A stretch of DNA of 32,650 bases, from IMG/VR virus record IMGVR_UViG_3300020045_012556, positions 1 to 32,650 of that record, one strand, 5' to 3'. Under the pieces are notes generated by a model that did no database searches, was not told the DNA's origin, and saw nothing but the letters and a program-made list of their open reading frames with translations. The stretch comes from a virus. Its lineage: Duplodnaviria > Caudoviricetes. The position numbers and the translations under genes were made by a program. Positions within the stretch are counted from its first letter, which is position 1. Each line of letters starts with the position of its first letter. Positions 5,563-32,650 of this stretch are shown piece after piece.

Positions 5563-5745
5563 ATGGAAAATATCAACACTAATTTTATTATTTCGGGTTT
5601 GTTCGCTTTGCTTGGTTCTCTGTTTATTTACATTGCTAATCGGATCGTTAAACAAAACGACGAAGACATTAAAGAGTTACGAAAATTACAGTATGAAGAC
5701 AGAGAAAGAATTTGTAAACTTGAAGGTAAGGAGTGCAAAAAATGA
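5563..5745 (+). CDS. Small single-TM plus coiled-coil protein (holin/antiholin-like)
   Basis: N-terminal hydrophobic helix and charged tail; first gene of the lysis cassette; ATGA overlap with the next ORF. Confidence 0.55.
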   Translation: MENINTNFIISGLFALLGSLFIYIANRIVKQNDEDIKELRKLQYEDRERICKLEGKECKK

Positions 5746-5876
5746 AAAAAATTGAATGTGAAAATTACACAAGAATTGTCGGATATTTTCGTCCGATTTC
5801 AGAATGTAACGCAGGGAAAAAATCTGAAATTGCAGATAGACTTTTATATGATGGTAATAAAAAATGCGCAAAATAG
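5742..5876 (+). CDS. 44-aa stand-alone glycyl-radical domain resembling the C-terminus of class III ribonucleotide reductase (NrdD)
   Basis: Hand translation MKKIECENYTRIVGYFRPISECNAGKKSEIADRLLYDGNKKCAK; AAGGAG SD at 5728-5733; ATGA overlap; matches the RxxGY(F)RP...N.GK..E..DR motif. Confidence 0.85.
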   Translation: MKKIECENYTRIVGYFRPISECNAGKKSEIADRLLYDGNKKCAK

Positions 5877-6379
5877 GATACAACTATCAAACCGATAATA
5901 TTATAGCACTCGGAATTAGAGGATCTTCTCAATGTTTTTCAACGTGCGATTGGATGTTTTTATCATATTATTGCCAGCTATACAAAGTAAATGACGATCC
6001 GATGATAAAACAATATATTGAGGCGCTCGGAAAAGAAGATGTAAATAAAATTTTTGAATGGGAAGCCCATCGAATGCAAATTCAAAAATGGTTATTTGTA
6101 CAAAATGTTCCGGGACTGATGAAACAAGAGTTGATTTCAAAAGATAAATTAAAAGAACTTTTAAAAACTCGTCCTGTGATTATCGGTACTAAAAAAATGG
6201 CAGGCTTGCCGGGCGGACACATTATACTCGGCGTTGACGTTGATGGTGATAATATAATTTGCAATGATCCATACGGAAATGCGTTGACAAATTATAAAAG
6301 CAAAAACGGAGAAAATGTTCAGTATGTTTTTGAAATGTTTGATTCTGGAAAAAATATTCGCGGGATGTGGTTAGAATGA
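5864..6379 (+). CDS. C39-like cysteine peptidase, putative endolysin
   Basis: YQTDN...QCFSTC, PVIIG...GGHIIL...NDPYG (Cys-His-Asp arrangement); flanked by holin-like genes. Confidence 0.8.
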   Translation: MRKIGYNYQTDNIIALGIRGSSQCFSTCDWMFLSYYCQLYKVNDDPMIKQYIEALGKEDVNKIFEWEAHRMQIQKWLFVQNVPGLMKQELISKDKLKELLKTRPVIIGTKKMAGLPGGHIILGVDVDGDNIICNDPYGNALTNYKSKNGENVQYVFEMFDSGKNIRGMWLE

Positions 6380-6579
6380 AAAAAATAATTGACACGTATT
6401 TAAAATCATCAATAGGTCGCGTAGGATTTTTAATTTGCATAATAGGTGGTAACTATTGTGCAATTTGGGGATTGATGAATGATAAAGATTTATTGGGATT
6501 ATCAGCTCTGGCCGGTGTAATTTTGGGTGCAGCGTTTGGAGGAAAACATTTCGGAAATAAATCAGAGGTGAAAAAATGA
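6376..6579 (+). CDS. Putative holin (two TM helices)
   Basis: Two hydrophobic segments and a basic C-terminus; ATGA overlap with the peptidase stop. Confidence 0.6.
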   Translation: MKKIIDTYLKSSIGRVGFLICIIGGNYCAIWGLMNDKDLLGLSALAGVILGAAFGGKHFGNKSEVKK

Positions 6580-6923
6580 ACCAACTTTTTTTAACTTATA
6601 ATGTACATAATGGAAAATGGATTGTAGAGCAGGATTATTTTAATAACATCGCAAATGTTTTAATTTTAAAAGGTTTTAAAACTGATCTTGCATCTATACC
6701 GCGTTTTCTTTGGTGTTTCATGGCAAGTTTTGAACTGTCTAAAGCCGCGCCTCTGGTGCATGATTTTTTATACCGTAATAATATCGGTACACGTAAGCAG
6801 GCGGATAAATATTTTTTATCAATAATGAAACATGAGGGCGTAAAATTTTGGAAACGTCGCACAGCGTATATCGCCGTTAGAATTTTTGCTGGTATAGTTT
6901 GGAGGAAGCATGAAAAGAAATAG
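6576..6923 (+). CDS. DUF1353-family protein
   Basis: GFKTDLASIPRFLW, AAPLVHDFLY, ADKYF and YIAVR motifs; GAGGTG SD. Confidence 0.85.
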   Translation: MNQLFLTYNVHNGKWIVEQDYFNNIANVLILKGFKTDLASIPRFLWCFMASFELSKAAPLVHDFLYRNNIGTRKQADKYFLSIMKHEGVKFWKRRTAYIAVRIFAGIVWRKHEKK

Positions 6924-7254
6924 TTTGTTTATTTTACTGTTTTTATTTATCGGTTGCGCGTCCTTGCCGTCAACCATTGCGCAAAATAAAATTGATAATA
7001 TTTTGCAGTCCGGTGATATACAAAGCAATGATATTAAAATCGTTCGAAGGGCGGCTTTGGAAATTGCAGAGATTGCACAGAAAGGAATTGCAGACGCTGA
7101 AGCAAAAAGAAATAAAGCCGAAAAAGATTATGAGTCTGAAAGAAAATATGCAGACATAGGAAAAAAAATTGTAGCCTGTGGGGTGTCGGCTGTGATTTTA
7201 ATTTTTGTTTATTTGTTCTTTAGATTTGTTTTCCCTGTTATGAAAAAACTATAA
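6910..7254 (+). CDS. Putative unimolecular spanin (lipoprotein plus C-terminal TM)
   Basis: Signal peptide with lipobox LFIG-C, helical middle, C-terminal TM helix; GGAGG SD; last gene of the lysis cassette. Confidence 0.7.
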   Translation: MKRNSLFILLFLFIGCASLPSTIAQNKIDNILQSGDIQSNDIKIVRRAALEIAEIAQKGIADAEAKRNKAEKDYESERKYADIGKKIVACGVSAVILIFVYLFFRFVFPVMKKL

Positions 7255-8296: not shown

Positions 8297-9253
8297 TTAT
8301 TTATTTTTTTTAAAAAAAAGTAAAATTTTTTCTTTGGCTATTTCTTCATTTTGCTCAATTATTGTCCCTTTGTCGGTTATTAACCCAACAGAAATGCACA
8401 CATTGTATAGTTCTGGATATACGCCCAAAATATTTTTAAAATTATTGCGCTGCATTATCTCATTATATGATAGCTCCGGTAGTATATTCATACCGGTTTT
8501 CCCACGCACTTTATACCATGCGGAATATACAAAATTATCTATTTGTTCTTTTGTTATTTTTTTTGTTTTTACTTTTTTATCGCTTTTGCTATGCCAACTC
8601 AAAATTCCAATCGGAGTCATGAGCGTCAACAACACTGATAAAAAAGTATGAAATATAAATTTTAATTTATCCATATGCGACCATTTCGGGATTGACGCGT
8701 AAAAATCGTACACGCTCATATCGTGCACTGTTAATTTTTCAGACTCGGATTGTTTGCCGGATAAATCTGAAATGACATTGATTGATTTCATAATGTCTTT
8801 ATTTATTTTGTCTAATCTGTTGTTTGCATAATATACCGATTTTGCATACACGGCGCGATTTTCAAGTTTTGTTAAACTGGATAATTGTTTGTTTATTGAG
8901 TCCGCCTCTAATCCGAGTCGTTCAATATTTTTTTCATGTTCCGCTAAAACTATTTTATTTGCATCTGTTACGACCTTAACGCCTGCTAATGAGTCATGAG
9001 ACATCAAACTAAATGTTTGTCCCGCGCTTGTTTGTATGGTCGCATAGATCGAAACGGTAACTACGATAATTAAAAAAATCTTATTGAATTGTGATTGATA
9101 CACGCTGAAGGCGAGCAATAATTCGAGCGCGACGGCGGCGGAAATTGCAATCGGCAAATTGATTCCATCACCGATAAATCTGAAAACATAAAAATATATT
9201 TCCAATCCGCTTCCGAGCGTGATAATAGCAATGCAGAAAATTTTACGTATCAT
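8297..9253 (-). CDS. Membrane protein (3 TM, coiled coil, TM, soluble domain)
   Basis: Hydrophobic N-terminal helices, heptad-rich middle and one further TM helix. Confidence 0.75.
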   Translation of the reverse strand: MIRKIFCIAIITLGSGLEIYFYVFRFIGDGINLPIAISAAVALELLLAFSVYQSQFNKIFLIIVVTVSIYATIQTSAGQTFSLMSHDSLAGVKVVTDANKIVLAEHEKNIERLGLEADSINKQLSSLTKLENRAVYAKSVYYANNRLDKINKDIMKSINVISDLSGKQSESEKLTVHDMSVYDFYASIPKWSHMDKLKFIFHTFLSVLLTLMTPIGILSWHSKSDKKVKTKKITKEQIDNFVYSAWYKVRGKTGMNILPELSYNEIMQRNNFKNILGVYPELYNVCISVGLITDKGTIIEQNEEIAKEKILLFFKKNK

Positions 9254-13986: not shown

Positions 13987-14695
13987 TTAATCTTTATCAA
14001 CATCAATTCCGGTAATATCAAAAAATATTTTTTTATCAAAATTCGGAATTTCAAATATTTTTTTACGATCTACTATATCGGCTTTTTTCCAACTCAAAGC
14101 CCAGGCCTCTTTATAATCAAGAGTTTTTAAAAACCCGCCGCAAGTTTCAATTTCTTTTTTATGTTTTATGTTTTTCTTTTTCTTCTTGCGTTGCTGTATC
14201 GTGAGATATAAAACAGGTTAATTCAAAAAAACAAAAATTAGGTAACACAATTTTATTATATTTTTTAGCAGATAAGTTTTTTCCAAAAACTCTAAAAATT
14301 TTAGGATCATCCGAATTAAACATCCCTGAATTTCCGTAACCAGAATTTCCATCACCTGAATTTCCGTAACCAGAATTTCCGTAACCAGAATTTCTGTTAC
14401 CAGAATTTACTAAAATTAAAACATCACCCCACGAAATTTCATTTAAAATTTTAATTTTATTCGTAGCTAATTTATCATTATTTTTTTCAACATCTCCTAA
14501 AATCAAAACTTCAGCCGCTTTATTTTCAGGATTGAAAGAATAATAATTAAAACAATCGACTAGTTTTTCGCACGCATGAAAACCAGTTTCGCAAATTCTT
14601 AAAATCTCGCCTTTTTTTAAAGAATAAGTTTTCCCGATTTCATACTGAAAACCGTTACACGCCCAATCTGAATTAAAAACCTTATACGCTTTCAT
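13987..14695 (-). pseudogene. NSGxx pentapeptide-repeat phage protein, frameshifted by a 7-bp duplication
   Basis: YKVFNSDW.C.GFQYEIGKTY N-terminus and NSG(N/Y/D)(R/G) repeats; the expected C-terminus (GGFLK..DYKEAW...IPNFDKKIFFDITGI) lies in another frame beyond AAAACAT-AAAACAT at 14161-14174. Confidence 0.8.
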
Positions 14696-29312: not shown

Positions 29313-30038
29313 ATGGCTTACACTTTTGAATTAAATTTCCAGAGGCTTTATGAAATTAACATAACGCCGAAAGAAGCAACTGCAACATGGGCTCGACTCG
29401 GAGTTGGAATATCTTCAGTCGATCCGTCAAACAACGAAACAAAAGCGCAGGATCGCTACATCGATGGCGACGGATACGCGGAAACGGAAGTGACAGGCGC
29501 GCAGTTTACTCTTGCGGTATCTGGACATAGAGCAAACGGCGACGCAGTTCAGGATTTTATTGCATCTCTCGAACACGAGCTAGGCGATAACAGAAAAACA
29601 CAGATAAGAATCACAGACAAAGCTGGTGAAATTAAAACTGGCAACGTAACTATATGTGACCTTGACATGGGTGGCGGTGACGCAGGCTCTAAGGTTGAAA
29701 TTTCTTTCAGCCTCGACGTTGCGGGAAAACCAACAATCACACCGAAAGCGGCAGCAACTGCATTGACAGCAACCGTTGGTGTTGGTGCGGCAGTTGGATC
29801 AACATCGTTTGCAGCAACTGTTACAAGTGGAAATCATCTTGCATACAAATTGCTTGCGGCATCGCCCGGAACAGTTTACGGCGGATCATATGTTGAAAAT
29901 GTACTGAACTACACGACTACAAATGATATTCCGGCAGTCGCAGGACAGTTCATGTGTATGTATGAAGTTACACCATACAATAGAGTTTTCAAATATCTTG
30001 AAGAAGCTCTTGTTTCTGGTGATATAAAAGCGGCGTAA
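29313..30038 (+). CDS. Major tail (tube) protein with C-terminal extension
   Basis: WARLG.GI....P..NE......Y.DGDG..ET.VTG.Q......GHR..GD..QDFI motif; GGAGG SD. Confidence 0.88.
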   Translation: MAYTFELNFQRLYEINITPKEATATWARLGVGISSVDPSNNETKAQDRYIDGDGYAETEVTGAQFTLAVSGHRANGDAVQDFIASLEHELGDNRKTQIRITDKAGEIKTGNVTICDLDMGGGDAGSKVEISFSLDVAGKPTITPKAAATALTATVGVGAAVGSTSFAATVTSGNHLAYKLLAASPGTVYGGSYVENVLNYTTTNDIPAVAGQFMCMYEVTPYNRVFKYLEEALVSGDIKAA

Positions 30039-30403: not shown

Positions 30404-30932
30404 GTTCAATGTAATTTTAGATACGCCCCCGGAGCAGAGGTTTCCGGGGGTTATCCAAAAGACTGATTTCAAGCAAGTTCTCAAATTTTTTCGTGTTTTG
30501 TCTTTATCGGAATTTACGGAAGAAGAAAAAACAAGAATGATTTTAAGAATATTTTTTAACGAAATACCAAACGATCCAAAACTATGGGATTACATAATTG
30601 ATTTTATTTCGTGCGGCGTAAAAGACGGGAGCGATTCCGACAAAAGAGTTTTTGATTATAATATAGATCATGGCCGTTTGTTTTCTGCATTTTTACAAAC
30701 ATATGGGATAGATTTACGCACGGCAGAAATGCATTGGTGGGTTTTTTTTGAATTGTTTCAAGCGTTACCGGAAGATACAAAATTGATGAGTGTTGTTGAA
30801 ATCAGATCAAAAAAACCTGATAAAAATGACAGCCCTGAATACAAGAAGTCACTTAGGAAAATGCAGAACGCTTATAGAATCGAAGATAATAATCATAGCG
30901 CGCTTGAACGTGCGCTTGATGGGTGGGTTTAA
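30396..30932 (+). CDS. A118 Gp15-like tail assembly protein
   Basis: TDF..VL, FDY..D...L.SAF.Q.YGIDL...MHWW.F..LF..L.EDT....VV.IR motif; TTG start with AAGGA SD. Confidence 0.88.
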   Translation: MSEFNVILDTPPEQRFPGVIQKTDFKQVLKFFRVLSLSEFTEEEKTRMILRIFFNEIPNDPKLWDYIIDFISCGVKDGSDSDKRVFDYNIDHGRLFSAFLQTYGIDLRTAEMHWWVFFELFQALPEDTKLMSVVEIRSKKPDKNDSPEYKKSLRKMQNAYRIEDNNHSALERALDGWV

Positions 30933-32650
30933 TGGCTGACGGTTCGATAAAAATTGACACTAAAATTGATGGGTCAGGTTTAGATAAAAGTCTTTCTGAT
31001 ATTAAAAAAAATGTTAACAATTTTGGAAAATCTCTTGAATCTTCAATGCAAAAAGCAGCTATTGGAATTTCCGCACCTATAATTTTGGCTATGGGTTTTG
31101 CAGTCAAGGCGTTTGCAGAAGGAGCAAAAGGTGAAGCGCGTTTGAGATCGGCGATTGAGTCGAGCGGACAAGAAGTTGAAAAAACATATGTCAAATATGA
31201 TAAATTTGCAAACTCAATCATGGAGATAACAGACGTTGACGACGATGCCGTAAAAGCGATGATGGCGTTCGGGACTCAACTCGGCGTGACATCGGACGAC
31301 ATGGACGCGGCAGCAGAAGGTGCAATTGGACTATCAAAAATAACCGGGTCGGATTTGCAATCGTCAATGAAAATGGTGACGATGGCGATGTCTGGTAATT
31401 TTATGATGCTCGAAAGATTGTCACCTGAAATGCGAAACGCAAAAACAGATGCTGAAAAAATGGCAATCGCAAACAAATTAATGCAAAATGGTTTCAAACT
31501 TGCGAAAGCTGAAGGATTAACTTTTTCCGGTCAACTTTCAATAATGAAAAACAAATTTGAAGATTTATCAAAAGCGTTTGGAAAAATAATTGCAGAAGCG
31601 TTGACGCCGTTTGTAAAAATTATAAACGACATTATAAAAAAGTTTATGGATTTATCAGATACTACAAAAAAAGTAATAACTGCCGTACTGGCAATTGCAG
31701 CTGCTGTTCCACTTGTTATTTTAGCGTTTTATCAATTGGCTAAAGTTGTTGCAATAATAAAAGAAATTAAAATGGCGATGATGGGATTGAATGCAGTGAT
31801 TGCAGCAAATCCAATCGGAGCAATCGCAACTGTGATCTCTGCCGTGTGGATACCAGCTATTATTTTAGCCTACACGGAGTGGGATTATTTAGTAAAAAAG
31901 TTTGAAGAATTTAAAAAATATATTATCATTGGAACAATCATTGCGTCAATTTTAATGCCGTTTATGATTATATTACCGGCAGCAATTGTTTTTATAATTG
32001 CGATAATAAAAAATTGGAATAATCTTGTTGAATTTATGATTGTAGGTGCAGCACGTGCGCAAGCGGCGTTTTGGATTTTCGTTAGCAATGTTAAATTATT
32101 TTTTATATCAATGTTTAATTTGGTTCGGTTAATGTTTGCTGATTTAATAATCGTAATTGCTGAAGGATTATTTACCGCCATTGATAAAATATTAAAAACG
32201 GCTGAAAAAATTCCAGGGATAGGAAATAAATTTAAGGGCGTTTCAGATACCGTAAAAAAATATAAAAATGAATTAATCAGCCTTGCATTATCGCAAAAAA
32301 AATCTGCTTTGGAATCTCAGAAACAAGCACTTGATGAACAGAAAAATGTTGAAACTATGATGAACGCTGGAGTAGGCGCGGCTCAAATTGCAAGCGATGC
32401 AAGAAAAAAAGCATTAGCAGATCAGAAAAAGAACGATGCGAAATCGGTTGAGTCGGCGCAACGTGCAGCTGATTTAAAAATGGCCGCAGCAAAAAATGAA
32501 TCCGCAGTTATAGAAGAACAAATTTCAAAAATTACAGAATTGCAAAATAATTATTATACATTGGTACAGGATAATTTGTTAGCTATTGAAAAAAATCAAC
32601 TTGCAGTTGAAAACGGAATAATATCTGAAGACGATGCAAGGGAAAATAAT
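30932..32650 (+). CDS. Tail tape measure protein, N-terminal part (absent from the ORF track because it runs off the end)
   Basis: ATG at 30932 (TAATG coupling): MADGSIKIDTKIDGSGLDK...; contains ANPIGA; frame continues into 1-2209. Confidence 0.93.
   Translation, partial: MADGSIKIDTKIDGSGLDKSLSDIKKNVNNFGKSLESSMQKAAIGISAPIILAMGFAVKAFAEGAKGEARLRSAIESSGQEVEKTYVKYDKFANSIMEITDVDDDAVKAMMAFGTQLGVTSDDMDAAAEGAIGLSKITGSDLQSSMKMVTMAMSGNFMMLERLSPEMRNAKTDAEKMAIANKLMQNGFKLAKAEGLTFSGQLSIMKNKFEDLSKAFGKIIAEALTPFVKIINDIIKKFMDLSDTTKKVITAVLAIAAAVPLVILAFYQLAKVVAIIKEIKMAMMGLNAVIAANPIGAIATVISAVWIPAIILAYTEWDYLVKKFEEFKKYIIIGTIIASILMPFMIILPAAIVFIIAIIKNWNNLVEFMIVGAARAQAAFWIFVSNVKLFFISMFNLVRLMFADLIIVIAEGLFTAIDKILKTAEKIPGIGNKFKGVSDTVKKYKNELISLALSQKKSALESQKQALDEQKNVETMMNAGVGAAQIASDARKKALADQKKNDAKSVESAQRAADLKMAAAKNESAVIEEQISKITELQNNYYTLVQDNLLAIEKNQLAVENGIISEDDARENN
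32530..32650. repeat. Terminal direct repeat, right copy
   Basis: Identical to 1-121. Confidence 0.97.

Follow-up and report, generated by a model that had tools for sequence, protein, structure and literature searches.

The lysis cassette and its 44-residue ORF

The window analyzed here is the whole stretch of 32,650 nucleotides, and the record represents a virus that is complete at 32,650 bp and bounded by direct terminal repeats. Its ends (1–120 and 32531–32650) are repeats of each other, and a tape-measure-like gene spans the terminus join (30923–32650 into 1–2209). Pfam analysis identified phage genes for a terminase, an SPP1-like portal, a minor capsid protein, a helicase, and a primase. 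The likely major tail protein (29313–30038, + strand) carries a C-terminal SbsC S-layer domain (E-value 7e-10), and a DUF7666 protein (14159–14695, − strand) contains GNSGY-type pentapeptide repeats.

A lysis cassette is located on the + strand. The ORF at 5563–5745 encodes a 60-aa membrane protein with a hydrophobic N-terminus that, by its position, could be holin-like; it had no significant family match in Pfam, PHROGs, or NCBIfam, and a similar gene is the first one in the homologous cassette of a complete 45-kb phage (L006). At 5864–6379, a papain-like (C39/C70) peptidase is encoded (Peptidase_C70, E-value 9e-6; Peptidase_C39_2, E-value 6e-4), which is likely the endolysin; it matches the PHROG endolysin phrog_10051 with an E-value of 2e-7 and is 40% identical to the L006 endolysin. 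The following genes encode a protein with two membrane segments (6376–6579; 48% identical homolog in the L006 cassette) and a DUF1353 protein (6576–6923; PF07087, E-value 7e-25), which also has a homolog in that cassette. The last one, at 6910–7254, is lipoprotein-like with a C-terminal membrane segment, a putatively spanin-like topology. It gave a weak Lpp/OprI-type match below the cut-off, and its 31% identical homolog in L006 is fused to DUF1353. The topology of this protein suggests a host with two membranes. Further downstream, at 8297–9253 (− strand), lies a gene whose 318-aa product is a membrane and coiled-coil protein outside any known family; homologs of this protein (40–44%) adjoin the same endolysin family in other phage contigs.

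Between the holin-like gene and the endolysin gene, positions 5742–5876 (+ strand) encode a 44-aa peptide, P0001, with the translation MKKIECENYTRIVGYFRPISECNAGKKSEIADRLLYDGNKKCAK followed by a stop codon. The Shine-Dalgarno sequence AAGGAG (5728–5733, + strand) is located 8 nt 5' of its ATG, an ATGA couples this start to the end of the 60-aa membrane ORF, and at its 3' end the ORF runs 13 nt into the endolysin gene. Having its own Shine-Dalgarno sequence, start, and stop, P0001 is a free-standing small gene. The initial annotation had described these signals and overlaps correctly, but had presented the ORF as a missed one, while the protein corresponds to a gene already called in the JGI/IMG collection. 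A promoter and terminator scan revealed nothing specific to this ORF.

The peptide had been proposed to be the C-terminal glycyl-radical segment of NrdD, and the profile searches bear this out. P0001 matched positions 532–562 of the 562 in Pfam NRDD (PF13597) with an E-value of 7.9e-7 and 28.5 bits, above the curated cut-off of 26.2 bits, and positions 550–579 of 581 in NCBIfam TIGR02487 with an E-value of 7e-6, the latter match being far below the NCBIfam equivalog cut-offs. No family of any other type was found in Pfam (E ≤ 0.1) or NCBIfam (E ≤ 1), including the glycyl-radical domain at the C-terminus of pyruvate formate-lyase (PFL), and PHROGs held no family for the peptide. Direct phmmer comparison of P0001 with the PDB gave no match at E ≤ 10, whereas a profile of its family was aligned with the NrdD tails of 4coi and 8p23. 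In this alignment, Gly14 (5781–5783, + strand), the predicted radical site in R-I-V-G-Y, coincides with the RIVGY glycine of Thermotoga maritima NrdD and the RITGY glycine of P. copri NrdD; the RxxGY glycyl-radical motif of class III RNR C-termini is thus present. The same R-x-x-G-Y loop, followed by an N-x-G-K...E...R helix common to both, is found in one-chain NrdD (T. maritima 4COI/4U3E, P. copri 8P23, S. thermophilus 9D3X, T4 1H78), and the same groove is predicted to receive it. In the solved one-chain structures found, however, the radical loop is the C-terminus of the chain. P0001, in contrast, is a separate 44-aa gene with the radical domain only, without the ten-stranded barrel with its finger-loop cysteine, the ATP-cone, or the zinc site upstream of the loop, which stays on the body in split systems (below). 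The peptide also differs from all cellular tails seen in lacking the aromatic residues eight and 16 positions after the glycine: Cys22 and Ile30 (5805–5831, + strand) stand at the places of the usual Trp (+8) and Phe/Tyr (+16).

P0001 is the only NRDD match in the whole phage genome, and profiles built from fetched loci revealed neither an NrdD body nor the cognate NrdG activase in any of the six frames of the window. This agrees with the initial annotation and supports its view that any partner must be supplied by the host.

A family of free-standing NrdD tails

A phmmer search with P0001 over 1.84 billion representatives produced 519 matches at E ≤ 0.001, while a word-index search found a single close relative (77%). 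The 149 relatives parsed come from the 150 among the matches listed and P0002, two without the motif having been left out. R11, G14, K26, E29, and R33 were invariant in all 149 of these relatives among the matches listed, so that the radical-loop residues appear to be retained across the tail family. Among the same matches listed, Met is the first residue in 146 of the 149, the Gly occupies position 14 in 35, as it does in P0001, and 120 are at most 70 aa long, although the proportion of short forms is overstated because clustering at 50% collapses full-length NrdD.

The initial annotation had pointed out the replacement of Trp by Cys. The replacement is there, but it is not a lone oddity: it is one half of a coupled pair, the other half being Phe/Tyr to Ile. 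Among the matches listed, the +8 and +16 residues were both aromatic in 114, both non-aromatic in 25, and mixed in 10 of the 149 relatives, a coupling whose significance is inflated by kinship among the relatives. The double variant was absent from the 127 tails of the cellular bin, a bin that also takes in two GenBank virus loci, and from 66 body-attached tails among the 120 longer proteins that best matched a profile of the variant. A DNA pattern for Cys/Ile-type variants, which proved too strict, had no hit in 401 Spirochaetota genomes and hit one viral locus, and cluster look-ups of ten variant peptides returned no informative names. Judged from these sequences, the small/aliphatic Cys/Ile form is a derived form of free peptides and not a sign of decay. 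Most viral tails have the canonical residue, with Trp at +8 in 63 of 74, and the sister lysis-linked tails are canonical as well.

A scan of viral sequences identified 371 tail relatives, of which 80 were retrieved. The tail stood alone in 74 of the 81 viral loci scored, and in none of them was an NrdD body or NrdG found in the flanks of up to 8 kb; the 81 loci include duplicates and one locus missed by the ORF caller. The initial annotation had called for a survey of phages carrying the tail without nrdD or nrdG. Among 50 viral records searched whole, 17 were at least 90% complete, and 15 of these contained the tail only. Most viral tails have genes for replication, terminase, or portal as neighbors. 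Searches of annotated phages by tblastn gave weak matches (<60% identity), of which H1 was a full-length NrdD and H2 a free-standing ORF of 144 aa in ANMV-1. No body is present in G020 and G026, two complete viruses in IMG/VR that possess two distinct tail-only genes apiece; in G026 the pair consists of one canonical and one variant copy.

The late, lysis-linked position, which had been noted as unexpected, is real and recurs in unrelated phages, but it occurs in a minority of lineages. A wall hydrolase was found within two genes of the tail in 7 of 45 viral lineages when a PHROG endolysin was counted. In the same 45 lineages, of the 137 same-strand genes at most two positions from the tail, 6 had a wall-hydrolase domain, versus 1 of 129 genes at six to seven positions (p 0.07; 33 opposite-strand ORFs left out); adding the one PHROG endolysin post hoc gave the seven lineages and p 0.04. 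The endolysin family of 5864–6379 had an adjacent tail in 4 of 24 lineages, including the fragment closest to the window (66%), the lineages being defined by single linkage at 70% and 11 with short flanks being left out. Where the link exists, the tail stays in the cassette despite changes in gene order and endolysin, as seen between the window and L006, in which the tail is 5' and 3' of the endolysin gene, respectively, and between L011 and L084. Tails adjoin M23, M15, amidase, and C39 endolysins in unrelated phages. The lysis link is therefore recurrent but optional, and the lysis position is not a defining trait because it is seen in a minority of lineages both family-wide and among the endolysin relatives. 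A family-wide lysis gene was ruled out on the same count of lineages.

In-frame fusions also occur among the relatives, in which the tail precedes the signal peptide of phage lipoproteins or of an outer-membrane phospholipase A (L304:3995–4504, P0230, P0234, P0248, P0250, P0186, and P0187). The same lipoprotein is found without the tail in L299–L303 and L307, and in L307 (4001–4432) the tail core is cleanly deleted.

Selection was examined in a sister lineage, as the P0001 gene has no close DNA relatives. Seven distinct lysis-linked sister tails had a pS of 0.51 and a pN of 0.037 (pN/pS 0.07), and 19 of their 24 variable codons varied only synonymously, which points to purifying selection on the sister tail genes.

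Split NrdD in Spirochaetota and the probable host

NRDD matches were present in 103 of 201 Spirochaetota genomes. Of the 110 NrdD bodies listed for this phylum, 21 were contiguous and full-length, one was partial, and 88 ended near position 532. For 28 of these 88, the listing itself allowed an assignment, with 21 split and 7 joined through a linker; the other 60 were fetched and comprised 42 split, 7 fused, and 2 unclear cases as well as 9 in which no tail was present within roughly 0.9 kb (one of them lying at the end of a contig). Thus, the tail is an adjacent separate gene for 63 of the 110 bodies listed, which makes this the commonest layout, while one-chain NrdD accounts for 35 of the 110. 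The initial annotation had likewise mentioned that some bacteria encode the NrdD tail as a separate small gene. Rows of body, separate tail, and usually nrdG were seen at Spirochaetota, Caldimicrobium, Woesearchaeota, and Acetothermia loci.

Across the 44 split junctions examined, all three frames relative to the body were used by the tail (18, 13, and 13), the spacing ranged from a 4-nt overlap to 249 nt, and all 44 had a candidate start with a Shine-Dalgarno-like purine run, a count that is lenient because the best start was picked by a script. A frameshifted or mis-assembled nrdD was ruled out for the cellular split cases by the distribution over three frames and the candidate starts. Among the 44 tails, 14 are short like P0001 and 30 have a coiled-coil-like N-terminal extension. 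In these 30 systems (L239–L296), the body ends and the tail protein, often of 160–190 aa, begins with a coiled-coil-like helix, which suggests a non-covalent coiled-coil clasp between the two chains. Several spirochaete bodies had no tail within about 0.9 kb (L272, L273, L275, L278, L281, L256, L258, and L280); given a second NRDD match elsewhere in the genome, their tail gene may be unlinked.

P0001 has the layout of a split-NrdD tail, that is, about 12–17 residues before the glycine (Gly 14 in P0001), no zinc site, and a length of 40–70 aa. It shares this layout with the 14 short spirochaete tails and with those of L145, L156, and L164. A similar arrangement was found in the large phage records G023 and G024 and the incomplete G050, in which the NrdD body ends after the zinc site without an RxxGY motif and a tail gene is located 32–36 kb away; NrdG is adjacent to the body in two of them. 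The distance between body and tail genes implies that the tail probably acts in trans in these phages. The three tail-less phage bodies and their distant tails show the same coiled-coil-like pattern as the spirochaete systems. Altogether, a class III RNR apparently split into body and tail is recognized here in genomes.

The host of the phage is probably a spirochaete, as judged from gene relationships. The endolysin-family alignment matched 5 of 201 Spirochaetota genomes versus none of 603 comparison genomes, 201 each from the phyla of Syntrophomonas, Pseudodesulfovibrio, and Labilibaculum (Fisher p 0.001). Two of the five matches do not resemble phage genes, and with only the three phage-like matches the p value is 0.015. 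A phage-like contig of 46 kb, binned in a Spirochaetia MAG, has the best match (E-value 1e-48); this contig also carries a tail-only gene and the MAG has a split nrdD of its own, although the binning of such a contig can be wrong. A single-protein scan with the endolysin gave no loci, and the capsid protein had no match in 301 Spirochaetota genomes at E 1e-30. The best named matches of the terminase are Clostridium phages (36–37%), and spirochaete tails score lower against P0001 (median 79) than other tails do (median 99).

Possible role of the peptide

The structure of P0001 in complex with the tail-less NrdD body of L120 was predicted. The body was a stand-in, and the alignments were ones built for this analysis. 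The complex scored 0.82, versus 0.00 for the best of three controls; the mark used is reached by 116 of 157 solved complexes and by 2 of 215 mismatched pairs. The model runs agreed in at least 89% of contacts, with a partner pLDDT of at least 76. Among the confident contacts was E545 of the body, which by alignment is the equivalent of P. copri Glu581, reported in the available text of PMC11226230 to bind the Tyr after the radical Gly, while the finger-loop cysteines C386/C387 were not among them. As one-chain NrdD structures exist, the pass may stem from the memory of these structures, and it shows likeness, not binding.

We consider it the best explanation, with a probability of roughly 0.6, that the host NrdD is naturally split and that P0001 serves it as an additional, exchangeable radical subunit. 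Because NrdD is mostly encoded by two genes in the likely host group, P0001 resembles an extra copy of the normal small subunit. In a spirochaete host, the peptide would be made late, together with the lysis genes, host NrdG would put the radical on Gly14, and the peptide would dock on the tail-less body. As far as the available text of the sources goes, NrdG introduces the radical with the domain flipped out of the core (PMC12662201), and oxygen cuts the chain at the radical glycine (PMC3019208); in the split enzyme, oxygen would destroy the tail only. Since such an enzyme loses only its small tail, a phage that provides further tails would be likely to recover or increase the amount of active enzyme; for 135 bp of sequence, it would thereby recover or increase the anaerobic supply of dNTPs for the synthesis of its DNA. 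As an insertion site, the lysis cassette would likely be just a convenient one that is expressed late. The points against the subunit reading include the presumed expression, which comes later than one would expect of a gene for dNTP supply, and Cys22/Ile30, which were seen in no cellular or body-attached tail.

These same two points would fit a decoy or inhibitor, in which the residues for NrdG recognition and docking are kept while the peptide, with its smaller Cys/Ile core, gives a dead complex or soaks up the activase, cutting dNTP synthesis by the host toward the end of infection. This role is retained as a rival mainly because the coupled variant was seen only in free peptides (25 of 149 among the matches listed, versus 0 of 127 and 0 of 66), and the purifying selection and the predicted docking would fit it equally well. 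On the other hand, most viral tails, the lysis-linked sisters among them, are canonical, the radical Gly is never replaced, and phages with a tail-less NrdD of their own also carry a separate tail, which fits supply and not sabotage; we regard a decoy as unlikely. Repair in the classical manner of GrcA, with P0001 replacing the oxygen-cut C-terminal piece of a one-chain host NrdD, has precedents for PFL in YfiD and T4 Y06I (PMC8683613 and PMC13450708, available text). The 35 one-chain enzymes among the 110 Spirochaetota bodies listed would offer targets, and the cellular tails that score closest belong to long NrdD frames. However, P0001 starts about 13 residues before the Gly, exactly as the short tails of split operons do, and the split layout predominates in the likely host group, which makes such repair quite improbable. 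The initial proposal of a spare part for host NrdD is thus supported in part, its GrcA-type form less well than the split-subunit variant.

The recurrence of the tail next to wall hydrolases raises the question of a role in lysis itself. In one such scheme, phages would use the radical tip in their lysis program: a peptide armed by the host activase would be cut by oxygen, and lysis or dNTP shut-off would follow the oxygen state of the host, with the Cys/Ile form specialized away from catalysis; we hold this combination to be very unlikely. Even more doubtful is that the tail was recruited into the lysis program as an element that host NrdG arms and that responds to oxygen or redox state. Its persistence in cassettes of changing order and endolysin (the window and L006; L011 and L084), its place beside four types of endolysin in unrelated phages, and the fusions ahead of signal peptides in relatives would all be in line with such recruitment. 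Yet 38 of the 45 viral lineages are without a wall hydrolase within two genes and the near-versus-far comparison gave p 0.07, 20 of the 24 endolysin lineages have no adjacent tail, the lipoprotein also occurs without the tail, once with a clean deletion, and no mechanism connects a free peptide to the lysis proteins. Finally, P0001 could be a functionless, decaying remnant of a captured nrdD, as its two departures from the cellular consensus and its single close relative might indicate. Of all the readings, we give this the least credence: P0001 has its own Shine-Dalgarno sequence, a coupled start, and all the invariant residues, the same two changes are common to 25 relatives among the matches listed, no other trace of nrdD is left in the genome, and the sister genes have a pN/pS of 0.07.

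The preferred reading, an extra subunit for split NrdD, can be compared with known systems. Like P0001, E. coli GrcA/YfiD and T4 Y06I (IPR011140) are free-standing glycyl-radical modules, phage-borne in the case of Y06I. According to the available text of PMC8683613 and PMC13450708, they depend on a host radical SAM activase and are thought to act in trans on an oxygen-sensitive enzyme. In contrast to the 5-kDa P0001, which matches NRDD and no PFL-type family, they are about 14 kDa and serve PFL. The partner of GrcA is a cleaved enzyme, whereas that of P0001 is likely a body born without a tail. By analogy, P0001 may work like GrcA/Y06I, but it is not a member of that family, nor is it an NrdD by itself. 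In the split class II RNR NrdJa/NrdJb, the C-terminal part of the RNR is likewise a separate chain; this enzyme, however, is B12-dependent, and its second chain has redox cysteines and a zinc finger instead of a glycyl radical (PMC9669993, available text).

The tail family is real and conserved, and we have not found it in print. Term searches of the accessible text of PMC9669993, bioRxiv 2022.04.23.489257, and PMC3019208 revealed a split enzyme of class II and none of class III, and the full-text literature searched contained no description of a stand-alone or split NrdD tail. In the available text of PMC8683613 and PMC13450708, only PFL spare parts are validated, and the latter, a 2026 review, describes spare parts as known for formate lyases only and as undetermined for other glycyl radical enzymes. 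The question of an NrdD spare part is directly testable with a synthetic 44-residue peptide, a natural tail-less NrdD, and NrdG. If the subunit reading is true, class III RNR would often be a two-chain enzyme with a disposable radical subunit, a layout that predominates in the spirochaete sample, and a 135-bp gene would enable small phages to tune the anaerobic dNTP supply of the host. The peptide would also be a handy minimal substrate for NrdG, and many short genes labeled as NrdD fragments would be explained.

Other arrangements of the tail were seen as well. In the archaeal virus ANMV-1, a stand-alone ORF of 144 aa annotated as anaerobic RNR (L002:4680–5114) consists of the tail and an N-terminal extension only. 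Several proteins of 140–180 aa (P0125, P0189, P0215, P0257, and others) start with Met and combine the NrdD tail with a glutaredoxin-like domain, without a body, and further fusions involve a dCMP deaminase (P0292) and an unassigned protein of 288 aa (P0199). The spirochaete G051 has a split nrdD operon and two further tail-only genes, one in a chromosomal metabolic region (L229:5230–5397) and the other near ParA/ParB-like genes (L230:4254–4559).
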